A DNA stretch of 11,032 nucleotides from Candidatus Altarchaeum sp. (GTDB lineage Archaea; Altiarchaeota; Altiarchaeia; Altiarchaeales; Altiarchaeaceae): the NCBI GenBank assembly GCA_018260615.1, contig JAGWDQ010000036.1:1-11032 (forward strand), read 5' to 3'. This document shows, in pieces, positions 2,249 through 11,032 of this stretch (position 1 is its first letter; each line of letters begins with the position of its first letter). The notes beneath the pieces are model-generated. The model saw nothing but the letters and a program-made list of their open reading frames with translations. It was not told where the DNA came from and made no database searches. Both the position numbers and the translations under genes were made by a program.

Positions 2249-2336
2249 ATAACGGATGGAGGATATACGACGTTCGCCGATAGGCGAATGTCCCGAAGGG
2301 CAAGGACGAAGTCCGCCGCGTATATCCTTTTGTTAT
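2249..2336. repeat. attC-like structured element E1 (88 bp)
   Basis: ATAAC-GGAT-GGAGGATATACG-[ACGTTCGCC GATA GGCGAATGT]-[CCC GAA GGG]-CAA-[GGAC GAA GTCC]-GCCG-CGTATATCCTTT-T-GTTAT. Confidence 0.9.
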
Positions 2337-2355
2337 GTGAAGTTGATGAAGGACA

Positions 2356-3936
2356 CTAAATGTCTAATTTGTTATATATTGGCAGCACCGGCGGCATCCA
2401 ATCATTTTCAATTTTCCTGAATTGATCTGTTATCTCAAAGATATGATGTAATGGTGTAACAACCACGCCCGTATCTTCATTTGGTTCCTCTTTAATCCAT
2501 GATTTAAGGTTGTTGAATGAGATATGATACGCATCCTCAAGTAATTCAAGAGCGACTTTTTTCATCTCAAATCCGGAATACAGGAGATACGCTACAACCA
2601 TTAGATCATTTGACTGCAGATTGCAGTATGGCTGGTATGGCGCCATTTTAAATATTGTTGGCTTTTGATGCGTTCTTTCAAATTTTTCAAACCTTTCTTC
2701 ACCCCACAATCCATGTAATTTTCTTAAAATTCTCATCACATCATCCGCCATTCCAAGTCGCGCATAACCAACCATAACATCGTACAATTTTATATTTCTC
2801 CAGCTTCTTTTAAACTGTGCTGATCGATAGGTTGTAAAATGATTTGCCAATTTTTCACCATCCTCAAGCAATTCCTTCCCGGAATCAATATTATTAAATC
2901 TTGCAAAAACAGGTGCAATGAAATTTCTGAATGGTTCTTCTACTATTCTACCCACTTTTTTCCCTTTTAGTTCTTCTTCCTTTGGTTTTGTTTTTTCGGC
3001 AATTAACATGGCAAATTCTAATGCTTTTTTGTCGTTTAATCTTGAATAAGCATAAATTAAACTTAAAATTTCTCCCTCATCGCGCGGAATTTCCAGCATT
3101 GGGCGATTCGCTGCAGGAGAATCTTTAAGGTCGGGATATACTTCACATAACCTGGTATGCATCAATTTATCAATCCTTTTTTCCTCTTTATCAAGTATCT
3201 GTTTTGATTCGGCATATCCATTGGAAATTGAGATATATTCAAATATTCTATGTTCTCCAGAGCATACCGGAGCATCTCCTTTCGTCAATCCAAATATAGA
3301 GGGATTTCGTTTATCCGGAAATAAATCAAATATTTTTGCATCTTTAAAAAATCTTGAGAGCCATAAATTTATTCCTTCATTTAGTTTTCCCGCGCTTGCC
3401 AATCGCCACCATATATCATCCCCATCTATCTCAAAACCAATTTGGACTATATCACAATCCTCATTAAAGTGTTCTGAACGCATACGCATCCGGCATGTAT
3501 CGCCGACAAATATAAATGAGATATCCCTTATTACATCCTCTAATCCAAGAGATGTAGCAATCAAAAACCAATCATTAAACAGACCAGATGGTGCATTAAA
3601 CACACCAAATGTTCTAATTTCTTCAATCTTATTTTTTATATCTTTTTCTATGAATGCCGTTGGAAATCTTTCAAATAATTCTTTAGCAATGGCAAGTTCT
3701 CTTGCACATACCAAATCCCGAAGTATCTCAAATTCTTTATAATAAATTGGTTGAACATCACGATATTTCCCTTTCTTTGAAAAGAAATTTGTATTTTTTA
3801 TATATTCATTCATTTGGTCTATCTCTCCTGCCCGTGCATATATTCTTAGAGCATCTTGAATTGCCATTTCCTTCCAATTTTTATGTTTAGAGCATTCACT
3901 CATTACTTCATTTAATCTATATTCCCATGTTACCAT
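2356..3936 (-). CDS. Hypothetical 526-aa cytoplasmic, largely alpha-helical protein
   Basis: Long ORF, charged and Leu/Ala-rich, no signal peptide or motif I recognise. Its stop codon directly abuts the cassette end arm (2332-2355). Confidence 0.8.
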   Translation of the reverse strand: MVTWEYRLNEVMSECSKHKNWKEMAIQDALRIYARAGEIDQMNEYIKNTNFFSKKGKYRDVQPIYYKEFEILRDLVCARELAIAKELFERFPTAFIEKDIKNKIEEIRTFGVFNAPSGLFNDWFLIATSLGLEDVIRDISFIFVGDTCRMRMRSEHFNEDCDIVQIGFEIDGDDIWWRLASAGKLNEGINLWLSRFFKDAKIFDLFPDKRNPSIFGLTKGDAPVCSGEHRIFEYISISNGYAESKQILDKEEKRIDKLMHTRLCEVYPDLKDSPAANRPMLEIPRDEGEILSLIYAYSRLNDKKALEFAMLIAEKTKPKEEELKGKKVGRIVEEPFRNFIAPVFARFNNIDSGKELLEDGEKLANHFTTYRSAQFKRSWRNIKLYDVMVGYARLGMADDVMRILRKLHGLWGEERFEKFERTHQKPTIFKMAPYQPYCNLQSNDLMVVAYLLYSGFEMKKVALELLEDAYHISFNNLKSWIKEEPNEDTGVVVTPLHHIFEITDQFRKIENDWMPPVLPIYNKLDI

Positions 3937-3958
3937 TTTTTAATGTTTCCTTTTGTTT

Positions 3959-4771
3959 TTAATTTATAAGCATATCTTCTTGTGTTGATCCCGGGCTTAA
4001 AAATCTTATATCGGGATTTTGTTTTAATTTTTCCGTGATTTTTGTTTCTAATTTTTGGACAAGCGTTTCATTTTCCTCATTAACCCCACAGATTTGAACA
4101 TATATTGCATTATGGGACGAAAGGATTATAGGAATAAATGGATTGCCTACTCTCTCATTACCAACCAATAAATATAGTTTATTATCGGGCAAATGAAATG
4201 TTATTACTCTAAAAAGTTGGCTTCTGTATCTACCATTATAAAAATCTTTAATACTGGTGGGAAATATTTTGCCCAACAACGGAAAAACTAAATAATAATA
4301 CCAGTATTTATATCTTCTACGAAAATTACCTAAAGTTGCAGAGTAATCTTGTTTTTTATATTTAATTGGTATTTCGTTTAAGCATTTTTCAACAATACCC
4401 AATGCAAAATTCAATTCTATGTTATAAAATTCCAATAGATGATAAAGGTCTTTACCTATTATATTCTTATGATTATGCCAATTATTAAATAATGAATTAC
4501 TCTTATCTCTCGCCCAGACAGACCGAACTGGAAGTATAACGATTGTATAATAAAATAATGCCATAACAAAAACCCAGGATATGAGGAAAAATAATGTATT
4601 AACATATATATTACTAAAGTCAAAACTATAAACATTAGTGACTACATGAAGCATACTCCCGGTGACTATTAATGACATGAGTGTGATAGGGATCCACATC
4701 AGAATAAACAATATAAATATTATCCAGAATGCTACTTTATTTATTTGAATCGTCCTATAAACCCAATTCAT
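3959..4771 (-). CDS. Hypothetical membrane protein (two N-terminal TM segments, soluble C-terminal domain)
   Basis: Hydrophobic stretches VAFWIIFILFILMWIPITLMSLIVTG and LFFLISWVFVMALFYYTIVILPV; 22-34 bp spacing from its neighbours. Confidence 0.8.
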   Translation of the reverse strand: MNWVYRTIQINKVAFWIIFILFILMWIPITLMSLIVTGSMLHVVTNVYSFDFSNIYVNTLFFLISWVFVMALFYYTIVILPVRSVWARDKSNSLFNNWHNHKNIIGKDLYHLLEFYNIELNFALGIVEKCLNEIPIKYKKQDYSATLGNFRRRYKYWYYYLVFPLLGKIFPTSIKDFYNGRYRSQLFRVITFHLPDNKLYLLVGNERVGNPFIPIILSSHNAIYVQICGVNEENETLVQKLETKITEKLKQNPDIRFLSPGSTQEDMLIN

Positions 4772-4805
4772 TTTGCTCTTTATTTTTTTGATTTTACGGT
4801 TTTAA

Positions 4806-7800
4806 TCAAATTTCAGATATATGTGCACTAACACCATTCCCACTTCCCGCCGGAGCGTCAGACTCTATCTTTCTTACATCTGTTGCCGGTGCATTTCCCG
4901 TTCTTGGTTCAAAATAGTTCCCGTCAACGGTTCTGCCTGCGGTTGCCATTCCCTTATACTCATACACACCAGTATCGGGATTCTCTATATATTTTCTCGT
5001 GCTTGTGTGTGCTACCTGTGTATTTGGGTAATCTTCAAGATATGTTCTTCCGGAAGGCGTAGTATATGTCCTCCCACTTAATCTCCCTTTTGTTACGATT
5101 TTTAACATAACTCCATACCCCGTTTCGTTTTCAATATATTTAATTTCCGTTATTCTTATTCCATTCTCATCCAATACATCTGTCCTGCCCAGTATAGTAT
5201 CACTTCTTGCCAGATGCTCATTATAGATCTTATTCACAATGTTATTGTGCTGTGTCTCTGCTATGTTGTTCAATTCCGAATACTCCGTATGTGTAAGGTT
5301 TAGTATTTTGCTAAATATTTTCCCGGGTGTTGTTTCTATCCCAAGTGCAGAATCTAAATACTCTTGAATTTTTGAAGTTATTTCCTCCTGATCAGAGCCA
5401 TTAAAAATACTTTCAACATTTGTGGTGTGCCACAACTGAGTATTGATATGTGTATATCCCGCTTTGTATCCAAGTGCCGCTCCGGATGACCCAACTAAAG
5501 ACAATGTTTTTATCAGGGTCCCATCGTCATTCCGACACGCAACAAATTCCAGACCTCCTGAAATCGCTCCTGCAGGTGTGGGTGTACTGCCTTGTGCAAA
5601 CCCTCCAGTACATGTACCTCCATACTCTGAATTGCCTTCAATACCCCAAACTAATGTGGCTTCTCCCTGTATCGATATGTCCGAAAAAAGATCAATTAAT
5701 GAACTTACTCCCCCGGTCGCCTCTGCAGGACCAGCAAGTTGAGCTATATCTGTTAATCCTACACTAAGTATGAGTCCCGCGCCCAATTCCGCCGATTCTG
5801 TTGTTATTATACTCACATCATGTGTTTTAAGATTGATAAGTAATCCTCCCTGTACATCAACACCTGCTGATACGACACAATTAAAACTTGCTGTACCACC
5901 AGTCGCAGGGATTATAACTATCGCATCCGCACCCGTCAGGTCATGAATACTGTCCAATACATCAATTACATACTCTGACTCTGTTTTATTTGAATAAACA
6001 ACAATATTAACTGATTTTAAATTAACAGAAGAATTATCAATATATTTTGGAACATCAAAGTCCAGATAATATGTTTCGTTTTGTGAAATATTTACTTGTC
6101 TTGTATCATTACAAATTATGCTACCATTTTCAGCATAAGCAGTTAATATTATCGTATGATTATCACTATAATTGGCAAGAATTGAATATGTGAATCTTGT
6201 TTGCGAATCATTTTCTTCAATATCTTCCAATCTCACGATTTTTAATGGATCCGCATCTTTTGAAATTTTAGAAAATGTCGCTTTCCGTTTGAGGTAATGG
6301 GTTGAATTATGAGGGAGTATAATCTCTTTTCCGACAGTATAATTGCCGTTGAGATCTAAATTTAAATCAGAATTAATTCCGGAATTATTTATAACAGTGA
6401 CAACTATCTCTTTTGGAATGCTGTTCGTTGTTTCGGAACTTGATTTCAGGATAACGGTTGCTGTGTAATTGTTGTTTGTTATACTAAAATTATCAAAAAT
6501 AATTCTATTGGAATCTATATTTATAGTTCCGTTAATGCGGATAATTGTTTCATTTGAAACCAAAAGCAATTGTGCATTTTTTATTTCAGATAAATCGCTC
6601 TCAGCAGATATACTGAATGGAAATTCATCAAGATAAATTACTTCATGGGAATCATTATTTAAAATTTGTGTTAAATTGCCGCAAGAGTAATTCAACCAGT
6701 TCACTTTATAAGGGGAGTAGGTAAAGCTGGCAGTATTGTTTATATTAATTTTTCTTGTATTTGTGGATATGTTTCCTGTACTGTAAATCCCTGATGCGGT
6801 GTACCAATAACCCTCCGAACTATATGGCAGGTTATAAAGAACAAATTGCGAAACTCCATTTATATCTGTTGTACTGTTTAAAACAATTGTTAAATTTGAA
6901 TTCCACACATTTAATTGCACAGAAATGTTCTCTTCCGGGTATCCAAGATTAGTAGATTTGATGCCAATGACCGAAACAGATATTTGAGTATTATTTATTA
7001 AATAGGAGGGGATTGGTTTTTCCATCAAAGGGTTGGTTTCTGTTTTATTGTCATCGTCAAATTGACCTAAATATTCTATTTTTCTATAATATAATGAACA
7101 GGTATTAACACAATCAGAAACTGCAGATATATCATTATAATTATTGGTTGTGGTGCATGTGTTATTATCTCCTGAATTTGAACCAATATTGGAAATGTCA
7201 TAATAATCACCTCCTGATTGATTGTTATTGCAGAATATATTAAAGTTTATTGTATTGCTTGCAGCAGTACTTGTCGTATAAAAACCATGACGATTATTGT
7301 TGTTTGCAGTATTATTGATTAAATTATTATATTCTGAGTAAGAAGATAAATAAATCCCATAATAATTTGAATTTGCCGTATTACCGGTTATGTTATTATT
7401 ATCCGAATACCGCAGATAAATTCCGCGATAAAAATCAGTAACTACACAATTCCTGATTACATTATTGTCTTTACTACTTAAATAAATTCCTTTATCAGTT
7501 CCAGAACCGTCACCGCCAATTGTATTTCCCTGGCAGTCAAAGATTTTATTGTTGAAATTTCCAGGGTTGTCAATGCAAGTTCCTGTGTGGTTTATTATGC
7601 TGGTATTTAGTTTGACTGTATATGCATTATTGTTAATGTTCAGAGCATCATAGCAATCCGAACAGCTGTCACACGCGCATACTTCCCCCATGGTCCCTGT
7701 GCAGTTATTGGCACTTGCGAGTGTGCTCACTCCAAGGATAAATACAAAAGTTAGTATTCCATACATTACAGTTCTCCATAAATTTTCATTCAATGGTCCA

Positions 7801-7856
7801 AAACCCTTATCCGCTCTCTCATGAACTTCAGCGGAACAACTATTTTTGTTTTGCAT
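4806..7856 (-). CDS. Large secreted/surface protein: N-terminal NosD/right-handed beta-helix (PbH1) repeats, beta-rich middle, Gly/Ala-rich segment and uncharacterised C-terminal domain
   Basis: Signal/anchor segment (YGILTFVFILGVSTLASA). Motif CDSCSDC...TCI...IFDCQGNTI.G, then repeated GIYL....NN.I..N.. units. Many NxS/T sequons. Confidence 0.85.
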   Translation of the reverse strand: MQNKNSCSAEVHERADKGFGPLNENLWRTVMYGILTFVFILGVSTLASANNCTGTMGEVCACDSCSDCYDALNINNNAYTVKLNTSIINHTGTCIDNPGNFNNKIFDCQGNTIGGDGSGTDKGIYLSSKDNNVIRNCVVTDFYRGIYLRYSDNNNITGNTANSNYYGIYLSSYSEYNNLINNTANNNNRHGFYTTSTAASNTINFNIFCNNNQSGGDYYDISNIGSNSGDNNTCTTTNNYNDISAVSDCVNTCSLYYRKIEYLGQFDDDNKTETNPLMEKPIPSYLINNTQISVSVIGIKSTNLGYPEENISVQLNVWNSNLTIVLNSTTDINGVSQFVLYNLPYSSEGYWYTASGIYSTGNISTNTRKININNTASFTYSPYKVNWLNYSCGNLTQILNNDSHEVIYLDEFPFSISAESDLSEIKNAQLLLVSNETIIRINGTINIDSNRIIFDNFSITNNNYTATVILKSSSETTNSIPKEIVVTVINNSGINSDLNLDLNGNYTVGKEIILPHNSTHYLKRKATFSKISKDADPLKIVRLEDIEENDSQTRFTYSILANYSDNHTIILTAYAENGSIICNDTRQVNISQNETYYLDFDVPKYIDNSSVNLKSVNIVVYSNKTESEYVIDVLDSIHDLTGADAIVIIPATGGTASFNCVVSAGVDVQGGLLINLKTHDVSIITTESAELGAGLILSVGLTDIAQLAGPAEATGGVSSLIDLFSDISIQGEATLVWGIEGNSEYGGTCTGGFAQGSTPTPAGAISGGLEFVACRNDDGTLIKTLSLVGSSGAALGYKAGYTHINTQLWHTTNVESIFNGSDQEEITSKIQEYLDSALGIETTPGKIFSKILNLTHTEYSELNNIAETQHNNIVNKIYNEHLARSDTILGRTDVLDENGIRITEIKYIENETGYGVMLKIVTKGRLSGRTYTTPSGRTYLEDYPNTQVAHTSTRKYIENPDTGVYEYKGMATAGRTVDGNYFEPRTGNAPATDVRKIESDAPAGSGNGVSAHISEI

Positions 7857-7943
7857 TTTTTGTTTAATTTTGTTTGATTTTATTTATTTTGATTTAAAGT
7901 TAATAAATGTTTAAATTCTAAATTTGTCCGTAGTCAATTTCAT

Positions 7944-8031
7944 ATAACGTATGCGATTAAGCGAAGTTTTGCGTCAGCAAAATATGGGTGAAGTTTCCTG
8001 CAAGGAAACGTAACCGCTTAATCGCTGTTAT
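7944..8031. repeat. attC-like structured element E2 (88 bp, divergent sequence)
   Basis: ATAAC-GTAT-GCGATTAAGCG-[AAGTTTTGC GTCA GCAAAATAT]-GGGTGAA-[GTTTCCT GCA AGGAAAC]-GTAAC-CGCTTAATCGC-T-GTTAT. The TTAAGC/GCTTAA stem resembles a canonical attC L box. Confidence 0.9.
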
Positions 8032-8146
8032 GCTCTCTGACCGAAGGGAAGACGAAATTTTAGTGCAACGATGCCGAAGGTAAAAATTTCGAGTTCAAAA
8101 ATCGTGCGTGGGGTGGAAGTTTTAGAAATTAGTGAGGACTGATTAA

Positions 8147-8485
8147 CTAATGAAAAATAGTCAGATACAGAAAAATAAGTCCTAATATTAAGAATATAAT
8201 ACCCATACCTCGATATATTTTAGGAATTACTTTTCCTGGTTCCCATTTAGAACCTAAAATTTTCATCCACCAAACCTGAAATTTTATTAGCCAATCAGGT
8301 TTTATAGATAACAATAATCCTATAAGAGTAAATGGAACTGCTAGGAACCAGCCGTATTGTGCCCAAAATATATCGCAAGGAATTTCTTGGTCATTTACAT
8401 AACATTTTGCCATTACTGGACTAATTATCATCAACAATGTTAAAGTTGAAATTCCAAAAAGTATAAATTTATTTTTCTGTATCAT
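8147..8485 (-). CDS. Small membrane protein with signal peptide (DUF6199-like C-terminal pattern)
   Basis: N-terminal hydrophobic leader ending ...SPVMA-KC, a Cys pair (CYVNDQEIPC), a TM helix ending KPDW, W...W...EP...R.MG and a final TM helix. The DUF assignment is from pattern recall only. Confidence 0.7.
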   Translation of the reverse strand: MIQKNKFILFGISTLTLLMIISPVMAKCYVNDQEIPCDIFWAQYGWFLAVPFTLIGLLLSIKPDWLIKFQVWWMKILGSKWEPGKVIPKIYRGMGIIFLILGLIFLYLTIFH

Positions 8486-8495
8486 TCTGTATCAT
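8476..8495 (-). repeat. 10-bp tandem duplication of the start region (ATGATACAGA x2)
   Basis: The + strand reads TCTGTATCAT at both 8476-8485 and 8486-8495. Confidence 0.9.
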
Positions 8496-8519
8496 ATTGA
8501 AACTATAATTATTCTTATA

Positions 8520-8527
8520 TTTATAAA
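8520..8527 (-). promoter_or_regulatory. Putative archaeal TATA box of the 112-aa gene cassette
   Basis: Minus strand TTTATAAA preceded by A-rich ACAAAAACAAATG (BRE-like), about 25 nt upstream of the ATG at 8495. The AT-rich background weakens this call. Confidence 0.45.
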
Positions 8528-8581
8528 CATTTGTTTTTGTCAGCCCGAACGTATCTTAGTAGCACGATTTTTGAATTGAGC

Positions 8582-8669
8582 ATAACGGAATAAGGGTATC
8601 CGAAGTTGCCCGATATGGCAATTTCACGGAGTGCAAGGGCGATAGCCCGTAGCGGATACCCTTTGTTAT
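8582..8669. repeat. attC-like structured element E3 (88 bp)
   Basis: ATAAC-GGAAT-AAGGGTATCCG-[AAGTTGCC CGATAT GGCAATTT]-[CAC GGA GTG]-CAA-[GGGC GATA GCCC]-GTAG-CGGATACCCTT-T-GTTAT. Confidence 0.92.
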
Positions 8670-8708
8670 CGGATGTAATGCGGAGGCATCTTATTCAATC
8701 AGAATGTT

Positions 8709-9263
8709 TTAATATGGAAATGTGATTATTAGGATTGCTATTAGTGCAACCACTATGATGATCACCCCTACAAGTGATATAAGAAGGACACCGATTGCCT
8801 TGCCTTGTGTAAATTCATGTGCCACCCTGATAGCCCGGTATGTAAACACTAAACTTGCAATTTGGTATATTAAGATACCCAAAAAAGGTATTATCGCAAA
8901 TATTCCTGGCGCATACGGAAGAGCCATCGCCCTTAAAAAACTAGTATAATCTGCTTTTCCACCAGCGAGTTTGCAAAATATATGGAAATATCCAGTAGTA
9001 ATTGGCCAAGCTATAAGTGCAATAATAGGGAATATGACAATATCCAACAATCCAAACCCTAATGAACCAAAACGAATACTTTTTTCTTCAATTCCCGGAA
9101 CAAGAAAAGATTCGAGCAATCCACCAATTGAAATAAAAATAGATGCAATTATAATGATAATGGCACCAGATACTAATGCATCTTTATCATCTCGTGCTTC
9201 TGCAAATACTTCCCTATCTGAACTCAGAACTCTTTTCATCCTGTTAAATACTATGTTCATCAT
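8709..9263 (-). CDS. Yip1-domain (YIP1 family) multi-pass membrane protein
   Basis: VL..D.EVF.E N-terminus, TM helices, and the conserved ...KLAGGKADY...LRAMAL...P...IIPFLG...AIRVAHEF..GKA pattern of prokaryotic Yip1 proteins. Confidence 0.88.
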   Translation of the reverse strand: MMNIVFNRMKRVLSSDREVFAEARDDKDALVSGAIIIIIASIFISIGGLLESFLVPGIEEKSIRFGSLGFGLLDIVIFPIIALIAWPITTGYFHIFCKLAGGKADYTSFLRAMALPYAPGIFAIIPFLGILIYQIASLVFTYRAIRVAHEFTQGKAIGVLLISLVGVIIIVVALIAILIITFPY

Positions 9264-9362
9264 TTTTCTTTATTTTGGATTTTTATTTTTTAATTAATTA
9301 TTAAACATGGATTTAAATATAAATTTGTATGGTTTTGTAATTCTGCCGAAGCATTATTTCCG

Positions 9363-9450
9363 ATAACGGATTAAGGGTATCCGAAGTTGCCCGATAGGGC
9401 AATTTCACGGAGTGCAAGGGCGATAGCCCGCCGCGGATACCCTTTGTTAT
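9363..9450. repeat. attC-like structured element E4 (88 bp, near-identical to E3)
   Basis: ATAAC-GGATT-AAGGGTATCCG-[AAGTTGCCC GATA GGGCAATTT]-[CAC GGA GTG]-CAA-[GGGC GATA GCCC]-GCCG-CGGATACCCTT-T-GTTAT. Confidence 0.92.
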
Positions 9451-9511
9451 CGGATGTAATGCGAAGGCAGTTTATTCAGTTGGACTGTCGTTAGTTAAAC
9501 ACCTATAAATT

Positions 9512-10942
9512 TTATGATGCTTTTACTCTTTTGACATTTGAGATACACTCATCTTTATCCTTCTTTTCTGATATTTTCTCGCAGAGAGAGCCATCCAGTT
9601 TTGCTATAGCAACCTCTTTAACACACCAATTTTTCCCTATTGAATTTGATGTTTTGTCACACAAGAAGACATCTTGTTTTTTTTCAGCAAGTCGGCTAAT
9701 ACATATGTCTTTATACCCCATATCCATGAATCCATACTTATATCCATACATATCTTTAAGTTCAGATACAGATGTATCCCCTATATCCCCACACAGAGAG
9801 ATATTCTGTTTTGCCACAGCAATCTTATAAATACACCACCTTTCATACCATGAATTTGATTTTTCACACAGAGAGATATCCTCTCTTGTCGCTGCAACTC
9901 TTAGAATACACCCTCCTCTTCCACCTAAAAGCGTTGATGCGTATGTCTTAGAGTGGGTCGCTGTTGCTATACTTGACTCATAGTTTTTGGTATAAATATA
10001 GCCATCCATCGATGTATATCTCTCAGAGTATCCTCTTATTATGCTCCATAATGTTTCCCCTAATGATATTCTCTCACAAAGTGAGATGTCTCCTTTCGCC
10101 GATGCAACCCACCCCATACAATTTTCTCTCGCAGAGGCATCGTATGTCTTAGATATTACAGAATTCTCTGATATCTTTTCACAGAAAGAAACATCTTTTT
10201 TATCCATTGCAAATAAGTAAATACACTCATTTTTATCTTCTGTTTTATTCATCGAATCACAATAAGAGACGCCCTCTATTTTTATCTTTTTATATGCCTC
10301 TTTTTTTCCTTGGTAACATTTATCATAACAATCTTTTGAATCGCAATATAAATCGCAATATGTCTCAACAACACCTTTACATTTTTCACCTGAACATACA
10401 CCTTCATTACACTTATTATTCTTACAACATAGCTCACTAATTCCTCCACATTTTTCACATTTCCCATTAGAGCATGCACCTTCACCACAGATATTATTCA
10501 TACAGCATAATTCACTAATTCCTCCACAACTTAAACATTTACCTTCACTACAAGCCAAGTTAGAAGATGAACATTTGTTGCCTTCACAGCACAACTCACC
10601 AGTCCTTCCACATTTTTCACATTTTCCATCCGAACACGCCCCCACATCACAGAGATTGTTATTACAGCACAACTCACCAGTCCTTCCACATTTTTCACAT
10701 TTTCCATCCGAACACGCCCCCACATCACAGAGATTGTTATTACAGCACAACTCACCAATTCCTCCACAACTTAAACATTTATTTTCACTACAAGTCAAAT
10801 TAGAATATGAACAATTGTTACTCTCACAACAATTTTGATTTAAATTCCCACATCCTCCAGTACACCCACTGATTATTATAAATCCAACAATGGCCAGCCC
10901 TACAATTCCATAAGTAAATAAATTTTTATTTGTATTTTTCAT
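9512..10942 (-). CDS. Cys-rich lipoprotein with six disulfide-type repeats and C-terminal A..K.D.S.CEKI-type repeats
   Basis: Probable start ATG 10942 (ORF track starts at TTG 10960). Basic N-terminus, hydrophobic core and lipobox-like ISG-C27. Repeats CGxxxE/QxCCxxxxCxxxxCxxxxC, then repeats such as AMDKKDVSFCEKI, ASAKGDISLCERI, AIAKLDGSLCEKI. Confidence 0.88.
   Translation of the reverse strand: MKNTNKNLFTYGIVGLAIVGFIIISGCTGGCGNLNQNCCESNNCSYSNLTCSENKCLSCGGIGELCCNNNLCDVGACSDGKCEKCGRTGELCCNNNLCDVGACSDGKCEKCGRTGELCCEGNKCSSSNLACSEGKCLSCGGISELCCMNNICGEGACSNGKCEKCGGISELCCKNNKCNEGVCSGEKCKGVVETYCDLYCDSKDCYDKCYQGKKEAYKKIKIEGVSYCDSMNKTEDKNECIYLFAMDKKDVSFCEKISENSVISKTYDASARENCMGWVASAKGDISLCERISLGETLWSIIRGYSERYTSMDGYIYTKNYESSIATATHSKTYASTLLGGRGGCILRVAATREDISLCEKSNSWYERWCIYKIAVAKQNISLCGDIGDTSVSELKDMYGYKYGFMDMGYKDICISRLAEKKQDVFLCDKTSNSIGKNWCVKEVAIAKLDGSLCEKISEKKDKDECISNVKRVKAS
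10586..10757. repeat. Exact 78-bp intragenic tandem repeat (2.2 copies)
   Basis: Identical units start at 10586 and 10664, with a partial third at 10742. They encode GELCCNNNLCDVGACSDGKCEKCGRT. Confidence 0.95.
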
Positions 10943-11003
10943 TTTTTCATGAATTATCAATTACTATATTTAAATGTAAAAAGTTATATTTAGCTGATTT
11001 TAC

Positions 11004-11032
11004 AATTCTGCCGAAGCATTATTTCCGATAAC
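11004..11032. repeat. Cassette end arm plus AAC core of a fifth element (E5), cut by the window end
   Basis: AATTCTGCCGAAGCATTATTTCCGATAAC is identical to 9339-9367, which leads into E4. Confidence 0.9.

Follow-up and report, generated by a model that had tools for sequence, protein, structure and literature searches.

The stretch of DNA analysed here in its full length of 11,032 nucleotides (the window) probably represents the distal portion of an integron-like array of gene cassettes, its host being an archaeon of the Altiarchaeales group. In this reading, which is the best explanation as a whole, the inverted arms at the ends of each cassette would be the outer stem of a recombination site folded from a single DNA strand. 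That the two arms of a cassette match each other beyond chance is an observation. The genome of the window (G000) belongs to an uncultivated archaeon from groundwater.

The units of the array are always separated by a conserved, covarying hairpin of 76–96 nt. This element is composed of ATAAC, an unpaired GGAAT, an 11-bp covarying stem, two or three mini-hairpins with GNA loops, and GTTAT. TAAC and GTTA are unchanged in all of 19 copies, and the same 19 copies display compensatory changes at 8 of 16 stem pairs. G000 contains 23 copies of the element, which is also present in 22 of 41 relatives. Similarity of the core does not settle which cassette owns it; the same core type is found with differing arms on either side.

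All sites, arms and modules of the window are given on the forward strand; the cargo genes lie on the reverse strand. The distal end of the array is E1 (2249–2336), a folded recombination site (ATAAC, bulge, 11-bp stem, three mini-hairpins, GTTAT) recognised by its fold and by the covariance model R1 with 66.5 bits. A copy in the related genome G060 is 97% identical, and the type of the left arm is also equal there. The left arm of cassette D (2337–2355), located 3' of the cargo genes, pairs with the right arm (7925–7943), located 5' of the cargo promoter. The cargo between them (2356–7856) comprises three ORFs of 526, 270 and 1016 amino acids; the largest contains a beta-helix region, while the other two match no family. 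E2 (7944–8031; 62.7 bits with R1) is a hybrid site according to its in-situ fold, with flanks mismatched outside ATAAC/GTTAT. In cassette C, the left arm begins with four paired proximal nucleotides (GCTC, 8032–8035) and is interrupted by a nested 56-nt hairpin module (8036–8091), which the fold loops out of the stem as a branch. Pairing is resumed in its distal part (8092–8107), with 15 of 16 positions matching 8562–8577 and one G.T. The cargo of cassette C is an ORF of 112 amino acids without family (8147–8485), and its paired right arm (8562–8581) abuts E3 (8582–8669; 78.7 bits with R1), by its fold again a hybrid site in situ. Cassette B has paired arms at 8670–8688 and 9344–9362 and an ORF for a Yip1-domain membrane protein of 184 amino acids (8709–9263). 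E4 (9363–9450; 79.3 bits with R1) is not a hybrid and folds in situ with the full long stem. Cassette A, finally, has paired arms at 9451–9470 and 11008–11027; its ORF (9512–10960; 482 amino acids) contains Cys-rich tandem repeats of 26 residues and belongs to no family.

These arms, together with the adjoining ATAAC/GTTAT, had been paired in the initial annotation, and a recount yields the same figures. The arms of cassette D (2332–2355 and 7925–7948) form 19 Watson-Crick and 3 G.T pairs over 24 positions, the remaining two being G.A. In cassette C, 24 Watson-Crick pairs and one G.T account for all 25 positions (8027–8035 plus 8092–8107 with 8562–8586). Cassettes B (8665–8688 with 9344–9367) and A (9446–9470 with 11008–11032) reach 19 of 24 and 20 of 25 pairs, respectively. 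The hybrid flanks of E2 (TTCAT-ATAAC/GTTAT-GCTC) and E3 (GAGC-ATAAC/GTTAT-CGGA) also read as described. The claim that the flanks of an element can mismatch holds for these two sites but not for E4, the flanks of which pair like cassette arms because cassettes A and B have one arm type in common. Folding in silico, as had been proposed, yields long continuous stems for the reconstituted circle junctions (−30.9 kcal/mol for D, −50.7 for C, −34.2 for B and −39.4 for A). The hybrids E2 and E3, in contrast, do not form such stems in situ (−24.6 kcal/mol, with the short R stem only, and −23.9 kcal/mol), whereas E4 reaches −39.4 kcal/mol. To speak of three unrelated arm sequences, as was originally done, goes too far. 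The arms share the skeleton GTTAT-N4-A(A/G)TT followed by a private part, often with a GAA/GAA internal loop; A and B make up one type, and arm types are found again in further cassettes and further genomes.

The mechanism that we propose can be outlined as follows. The element would fold on the strand opposite the cargo genes, and strand exchange would occur within ATAAC of the folded strand, that is at G|TT on the gene strand. Exchange at this point would imply a cassette that reads, in gene direction, TTAT plus arm, promoter, ORF, the complementary arm with or without a module, ATAAC, core and G; a bacterial integron cassette has the same layout. Taken together, the two arms would thus make up the outer stem of a single long palindrome, a site complete only in the excised circle. 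Since integration would split this site, each site in the array would combine halves from two cassettes, i.e., be a hybrid, except where neighbours have an equal arm type, as at E4. The arms may stabilise the hairpin of the free cassette and so favour its re-insertion; the hybrid sites, which fold less well, may favour stability of the array. The simplest reading is that the arms act through stem stability.

How far the arm rule extends beyond the window was analysed in G000 and its relatives, about 15 related archaeal genomes with 48 cassettes in total, all genomes compared being metagenome bins. An anchored score that permits one insert was used. A score of at least 7 was reached by 20 of the 48 pairs of cognate arms, by 12 of 1200 non-cognate pairs and by 2 of 76 pairs of flanks of one element. 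Cognate arms differ from non-cognate pairs with p = 1e-16 and from across-element flanks with p = 3e-9 (Mann-Whitney). The comparison of matching within cassettes with matching across elements in a larger set, which the initial annotation had named as a refuting test, clearly favours the arm rule. The high-scoring cassettes are spread over nine or more genomes and four families, and their matched arms measure 14–29 nt, GTTAT included. In G000 itself, matched arms are seen in 12–13 of about 19 cassettes, if the double-stranded end sites discussed below are also taken as cassette borders. Overall, a long arm match is absent in about one third to one half of the cassettes; in some of them, not necessarily in all, the borders have escaped detection.

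The same data bear on the idea of cassette-specific address codes, according to which the arms would be read in trans and steer a cassette to a particular place. The arms are, indeed, private and long enough for specificity. Across-element matching, however, stays at background level, one and the same arm type is seen beside different cores and neighbours, and the only partner found for an arm is the other arm of its cassette, with nothing matching in trans. The address codes suggested by the initial annotation are therefore very improbable.

A more serious contender is that the arms are neutral relics of the origin of the cassettes and have no present function. For instance, the core could have entered an existing palindrome (say, the terminator hairpin of a preceding gene), the halves of which were parted when shuffling took place at the core. 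Arm sequences are largely cassette-private and lie outside coding sequence, and cassettes with different cargo can have both ends in common (A and B in the window, D-type ends in G060), which would fit a common precursor. Conservation points the other way. A 2.2-kb cassette common to the genomes G029 and G003 is 77% identical overall, but about 90–100% identical in arms and module; its right-end homology ends at ...GCGTATAA. In G060, the distal stem of D-type arms is altered jointly on both sides, from GGACA/GGACA to GGACGCC/GGACGCC. One cassette of this genome speaks against the split-site reading, its four bases adjoining GTTAT/ATAAC being mismatched and its distal arm matched. Many left arms harbour a hairpin module of 35–56 nt, and pairing resumes exactly beyond it; the module of cassette C is 85% identical to one at the same position in G006, a genome of a different family. 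Mismatches, moreover, are strand-specific, being G.T and G.A. Neutral relics thus appear unlikely. They would in any case be a rival on origin, compatible with a present function.

The strand bias deserves attention. Arm mismatches are mainly G.T or G.A on the element-sense strand, i.e., the strand opposite the genes. Of 52 mismatches, 34 form G.T on this strand as against 3 on the other one, yet many of the G.T cases fall on one recurrent position (GAAGT versus GAAAT) and are therefore not independent events. In 67 of 75 elements the fold is more stable on the sense strand, which has a purine content of 56.5%, and the longest ORF is antisense to it in 39 of 47 cassettes. This bias also bears on the possibility that the arms pair in RNA, where the two ends of the cassette transcript, or those of an antisense RNA, would form a stem serving to stabilise, process or circularise it. 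The arms do enclose the whole transcription unit, the right one 5' of the promoter region and the left one just past the stop codon. Wobble pairs on the strand opposite the genes, however, become C.A mismatches in mRNA; GNA triloops, as present here, are characteristic of mini-hairpins in DNA, Rfam has no matching family, and the right arm, some 50–80 nt 5' of the start codon, is probably outside the transcript. Pairing in RNA can be given little credence.

Where the outer stem of the folded site would be cut is suggested by homology breaks. The right end of cassette D is homologous to its copies in G060 up to 7948, the C of ATAAC. At the other end of the window, a double-stranded site with a triple inverted repeat ("type-2") has its left edge in the terminal ATAAC (11028–11032), as evident from its continuation in the contigs C120 and C5. 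Both start with positions 10978–11032 of the window at 100% identity and run on into a type-2 site; the right arm of cassette A with ATAAC is thus joined to two different sites of this kind. This ATAAC does not belong to a fifth hairpin element. In G029 and G033, the last arm with ATAAC or CTAAC abuts a double-stranded inverted repeat just before a recombinase gene, and in G002 a type-2 site follows a XerA-type gene; such sites are candidate counterparts of attI, at which cassettes enter an integron next to its integrase gene. Judged from their sequence, then, the arrays end in double-stranded inverted-repeat sites, and the coincidence of homology break and end-site junction at ATAAC supports a crossover there. 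A recombination product was not seen in public runs, searched as contigs; a single joint from 2352 to 7928 in contigs has one side of 22 nt and a depth of 8.7.

A further view holds that the arms are no split-site halves at all but inverted repeats, either as borders of invertible segments or as the terminal repeats of transposon-like units. Inverted repeats of 20–25 bp around a gene-sized segment, and a tyrosine recombinase gene in the genome, would be expected of such units. Against this, the cargo has the one-sided orientation mentioned above, inversion joints were not found in contigs, and target duplications are absent, the flanks being inverted ATAAC/GTTAT and not direct repeats. Further, the conserved hairpin invariably lies between the units, and a given arm can adjoin different cores and end sites, the junction lying precisely at ATAAC. 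Of all readings, this one is the least probable, with hardly any chance of being correct.

The enzyme that would act on the folded sites is most likely a XerA-family tyrosine recombinase without the IntI-specific insert, as gene neighbourhood suggests. The sole tyrosine recombinase in G000 (C79:92–1120) scores 237.9 bits against the profile XerA_Arch NF040815, with a cut-off of 220, which is also passed by a protein of G003 and two gene products of G029. In G000 and G003 the recombinase has an N-terminus longer by about 70 residues. XerA-type genes lie beside elements in six genomes (G003, G029, G030, G033, G036 and G002), in each case on the gene-upstream side; the contig of the window contains no recombinase. 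With the IntI profile (TIGR02249), neither the recombinase of G000, a genome 87% complete, nor any of 61 genomes of the class reaches the cut-off, and every match to it in these genomes lacks profile positions of about 180–230. XerA doubles as a housekeeping chromosome resolvase. In G000, one XerA-type gene only is present. The CTX phage, with its attP and XerCD, shows that a Xer enzyme lacking the IntI insert can work on a single strand folded into a hairpin; the phage is, however, a single integrating element and not an array of swappable cassettes. Archaeal XerA/dif (PMC3646895) is comparable in the XerA-scoring recombinase and in double-stranded inverted-repeat sites beside the gene, which does not imply a dif role for the latter.

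Bacterial integrons are among the closest known systems. Their attC sites, too, are imperfect palindromes with an invariant AAC...GTT between mostly single-gene cassettes, and a cassette starts with bases complementary to the inverse core at its far end, since only in the circle is the site intact. The integron logic adduced by the initial annotation, i.e., arms pairing within cassettes and hybrids across elements, agrees with the 48 cassettes, the folds and the breakpoints at ATAAC. In attC, the R''/R' boxes are RYYYAAC/GTTRRRY and the folded bottom strand is recombined (Nivina et al. 2016, PMC5027507); the present consensus, ATAAC/GTTAT followed by a variable N4, fits this purine/pyrimidine pattern in part only. 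As here, the attC strand that folds is also the one serving as template for the cargo, and it is more stable and richer in G.T pairs and in purines (PMC5027507). There are also differences. The 11-bp stem is without bulges, and the arm facing the cleaved AAC thus lacks extrahelical bases; the terminal part of the site is a conserved multi-hairpin; a module of 35–56 nt can sit inside the paired region; and the platform has no IntI, its arrays ending in double-stranded sites. Without extrahelical bases and without IntI, and with XerA-type recombinases beside the arrays, the system is not a canonical integron.

As had been noted early on, the arms by far exceed the 7-bp R box. Complementarity over 7 bp is what integrons predict; here it is visible over about 20–29 nt, mostly cassette-private, so that the sequence itself reveals where cassettes end, which sites are hybrid and where the crossover point lies. 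The rule as such is known from integrons, and the data support its extension by about three-fold. Long structured attC sites also occur in the large sedentary superintegron of Vibrio cholerae, the repeats of which (VCRs, about 120 nt) are near-uniform across the array; their length therefore reflects a family-wide sequence and not cassette-private pairing. Two open questions of integron biology are touched: how folding of attC balances mobility against array stability, and whether capture of cassettes with hairpin sites needs the IntI-specific domain. If a XerA-type enzyme is responsible, gene capture via folded DNA sites would predate the IntI family or extend more widely than it, and matched versus hybrid arms would offer a simple natural test system. 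Tentatively, and with more doubt than confidence, one may go further and credit Altiarchaeales-type archaea with a gene-capture system of their own. It would combine a XerA-type recombinase with a private 14–29-nt stem extension per cassette, often with a hairpin module; the free circle would fold much better than the sites in the array, with a bias to double-stranded end sites and stable arrays in consequence.

Archaeal integrons and CALINs have been described by Ghaly et al. (2022, PMC9668308), likewise as arrays in metagenome bins and mostly without an integrase on the contig. These arrays, however, were found by a canonical attC model, and their IntIs have the IntI-specific domain; Altiarchaeota are mentioned there only as the root of a tree. 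A CALIN is a group of two or more attC sites spaced by less than 4 kb and with no integrase close by; E2–E4 would qualify if accepted as attC-like, lying within 1.5 kb on a contig that has no recombinase.

The window makes up the entire 11-kb contig C36 of a metagenome bin of 2.2 Mb with 33% GC, in which archaeal SSU and LSU rRNA genes are present. Its four copies of a putative recombination-site element, E1 (2249-2336), E2 (7944-8031), E3 (8582-8669) and E4 (9363-9450), are each 88 nt long, and a fifth ATAAC (11028-11032) closes the contig. Rightward of 2249, the gene units between the elements carry all their ORFs on the minus strand. In an alignment of 19 copies from the bin the TAAC and GTTA ends are invariant, and the 11-bp stem shows compensatory changes at 8 of 16 predicted pairs. 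A covariance model recovers 23 copies in the bin and further ones in 22 of 41 related genomes. Judged by its sequence, the 88-nt element is a genuine structured family; searches of the window against Rfam and for tRNAs yielded nothing relevant.

The initial annotation had claimed that the left and right ends of each gene unit (cassettes D, C, B and A, from left to right) are paired arms. This observation is confirmed, and coordinates and pair counts were correct for all four. The arms of D (2332-2355 with 7925-7948) form 19 Watson-Crick, 3 G.T and 2 G.A pairs out of 24. Those of C (8027-8035 plus 8092-8107 with 8562-8586) form 24 Watson-Crick and 1 G.T pair out of 25, a 56-nt insert at 8036-8091 being looped out. 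B (8665-8688 with 9344-9367) reaches 19 of 24 pairs and A (9446-9470 with 11008-11032) 20 of 25. The annotation also said that the outer flanks of a single element can mismatch. E2 and E3 indeed are such hybrids; E4 is not, A and B having the same arm type. When the circle junctions are reconstituted and folded in silico with DNA parameters, a single uninterrupted long stem results for every cassette, at -30.9 kcal/mol for D, -50.7 for C, -34.2 for B and -39.4 for A; in C the insert forms a branch of that stem. The hybrids as they stand in situ reach -24.6 (E2) and -23.9 kcal/mol (E3) and retain just the core and a short R stem.

The comparison named beforehand as the one that could refute the rule was that of matching within cassettes and across elements in a larger set. 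It comprised 48 cassettes, each between two co-oriented elements, from the bin and from arrays of its relatives; arms of the same cassette were compared with the two flanks of one element and with non-cognate pairs. The rule passed: 20 of 48 cognate pairs had an arm score of at least 7, versus 2 of 76 across-element pairs, one of them being E4, and 12 of 1200 non-cognate pairs. At least nine genomes, from four families, contribute high-scoring cassettes; matched arms measure 14-29 nt, GTTAT included. The integron-type reading of the arms is supported; the mechanism we infer. That the arms might serve as cassette-specific address codes, as had also been proposed, is not supported.

The arms follow a common plan. 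The left one starts with GTTAT and four variable bases, may then carry a hairpin module of 35-56 nt, and ends in AGTT followed by 8-14 private bases; in the right one the private bases precede AATT, four bases and ATAAC. In several arms GAA faces GAA of the same strand. Where a module is present, pairing restarts exactly past it, as in cassette C, in cassettes of contigs C69, C142 and C81, in those of the relatives G029 and G003, and in others. The module of cassette C (8036-8091) is 85% identical over 55 nt to one in G006, a genome of a different family (locus L048, G006:C9, just after 3856), and because of this likeness the modules are regarded as a sequence family of their own. Such modules (8036-8091; L048; C69, C142) fall into conserved families common to genomes of different families, and their position is always four bases past GTTAT. 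A unit of about 170 nt in G029 (locus L061, G029:C1 1250001-1262000, at 5745-5895) has matched arms and a module without any ORF. It is situated between a hairpin element and an attI-like inverted repeat ahead of the recombinase gene and looks like a cargo-less mini-cassette.

A 2.2-kb cassette is common to G029 and G003, which belong to different families; its identity is 77% overall and about 90-100% in arms and module. D-type cassette ends also occur in G060, a member of another family, where the two arms have changed jointly in the distal stem (GGACGCC/GGACGCC, against GGACA/GGACA in the window). The arms are therefore kept, and kept paired. G060 further contains two cassettes (locus L078, G060:C98 8000-18000, at 2647-6907) that have the ends of cassette D and a much shorter cargo. 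They agree with D in an E1-like core, in the left arm and in some 200 nt at the right end, a stretch that takes in the N-terminus of the cargo protein; cassette ends thus recur with other cargo, like those of A and B in the window.

Where the exchange takes place can be narrowed down. The private four bases beside ATAAC and GTTAT, e.g., GCTC, CGGA and GTCT, obey the within-cassette rule, and the exchange should therefore fall inside ATAAC...GTTAT. Four observations of sequence speak for the sense strand's ATAAC end: the homology between the G029 and G003 cassettes stops at ...GCGTATAA; that of the right end of D to three G060 loci stops at 7948, the C of ATAAC; contigs C120 and C5 carry the last arm of the window and its ATAAC on into double-stranded sites that differ from each other; and the last arm in G029 and in G033, with its ATAAC/CTAAC, adjoins an inverted repeat just upstream of a recombinase gene. 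Read in gene direction, a cassette would be built as TTAT-arm ... ORF ... arm-ATAAC-core-G, with the exchange at G|TT, a layout like that of integron cassettes. Whether the core belongs to the left or the right cassette was not decided by core similarity: identities in the G029/G003 pair are 75% (left) and 64% (right) at a background mean of 65%, and throughout the bin the same core type accompanies different arms on both sides.

The fifth ATAAC is no further hairpin element. It opens a site of about 135 nt with three inverted-repeat boxes, here called type-2 (e.g., TATATCCGCAGTTATTGCATATA). The bin contains at least nine such sites, each preceded by a cassette arm and ATAAC. Those at C120 51-186 and C5 2172-2025 both continue window positions 11028-11032; the others are at C142 4200-4067 and 2998-2863, C38 286-151, C68 14039-14168, C81 45333-45197, C90 1233-1353 and C70 11238-11126. 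They serve as right cassette borders, and once they are counted as such, 12-13 of the roughly 19 cassettes of the bin have matched arms. Since a related site lies downstream of a XerA-type gene in G002, type-2 sites are candidates for attI-like or dif-like double-stranded sites. By eye, the half-site TAT(A/C)CG(A/C)A is present in the stem of the hairpin element too.

The pairing has a preferred strand, on which three measures agree. Well-matched arms contain 52 mismatches; G.T on the element-sense strand (the plus strand in the window) accounts for 34 of them, many at one recurrent position, and G.T on the opposite strand for 3. In 67 of 75 elements the sense strand is the more stable of the two; it has 56.5% purine and is antisense to the longest ORF in 39 of 47 cassettes. 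The same properties, i.e., stability, G.T, purine and cargo template, are published for the bottom strands of integron attC sites (PMC5027507).

The sole tyrosine recombinase of the bin (C79:92-1120) scores 238 bits as archaeal XerA (cut-off 220); as integron integrase it stays under the cut-off and lacks the IntI-specific stretch. Across 61 genomes of the class no protein scores as high as the IntI cut-off, and the searches of bin and class gave only XerA-type enzymes. Genes of this type adjoin elements or type-2 sites in G003, G029, G030, G033, G036 and G002. Beside arrays they are in every case found on the gene-upstream side, which is where an integron keeps intI and attI. By this neighbourhood evidence, the XerA-type enzyme is probably tied to the arrays.

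The logic of the array is that of integron cassettes. Two tested features of the canonical integron family, extrahelical bases and IntI, are absent, and canonical R boxes measure 7 bp (PMC5027507). Archaeal integrons have been described (Ghaly et al. 2022, PMC9668308); no paper in the literature searched ties Altiarchaeota to integron-like arrays or XerA to arrays of cassettes. The present analysis adds a test of the arm rule across the family, the strand specificity of the pairing, the modules nested in the arms, the double-stranded sites at array ends and the constant side of the recombinase gene.

Two groundwater runs contain the stretch, as Logan contigs only, and none of these contigs holds a usable cassette junction. 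One low-depth contig of run X2 links the D arms directly (2352 to 7928) and skips 5575 nt; such a join would represent either an "empty" cassette or a deletion, yet at a depth of 8.7 and with a shorter side of 22 nt it is too weak. Differences in depth from one cassette to another are figures per contig and were not relied on. Branches at 9367/9368 arise because the right arms of A and B are identical. In X2, loose ends at 7950 and 8586, each in a single contig, suggest that D and C have their right arms joined elsewhere in another sample, to other cores or to end sites. In the same run, the second groundwater sample, cassette B (8706-9341) differs at 41 of 636 positions, against 0-2 per contig for D, C and A, which suggests that B is another allele or copy there. 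A contig branch at 2253 traces to a paralogue on C17 (88.6% identity over 2080-2289) and is not population heterogeneity. The paralogue, at C17 279-488, covers the about 170 nt left of E1 (2080-2253) and leads into a different hairpin element, so the apparent chromosomal flank may itself be a repeated cassette end.

The cargo proteins gave no match to defence systems. That of cassette A (9512-10960) is a Cys-rich protein of 482 aa made of 78-nt (26-aa) tandem repeats, two of them identical at the DNA level; no Pfam family matched it. A 91-aa ORF at 1359-1634 matches only the C-terminal glycyl-radical end of the anaerobic ribonucleotide reductase NrdD (Pfam PF13597, positions 526-562) and adjoins a small ferredoxin and a rubrerythrin fragment. 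A separate dispersed repeat at 1023-1140 (…CACCAAGACACGGAGACACAAAGG…GTGACTTTGTG…) is 83-89% identical to copies on C17, C120 and C5. It is often accompanied by TCAAAACGCAGAGTTTTGAAAAT-type palindromes, which occur over many contigs, and has the look of a MITE-like family with no relation to the cassette sites.
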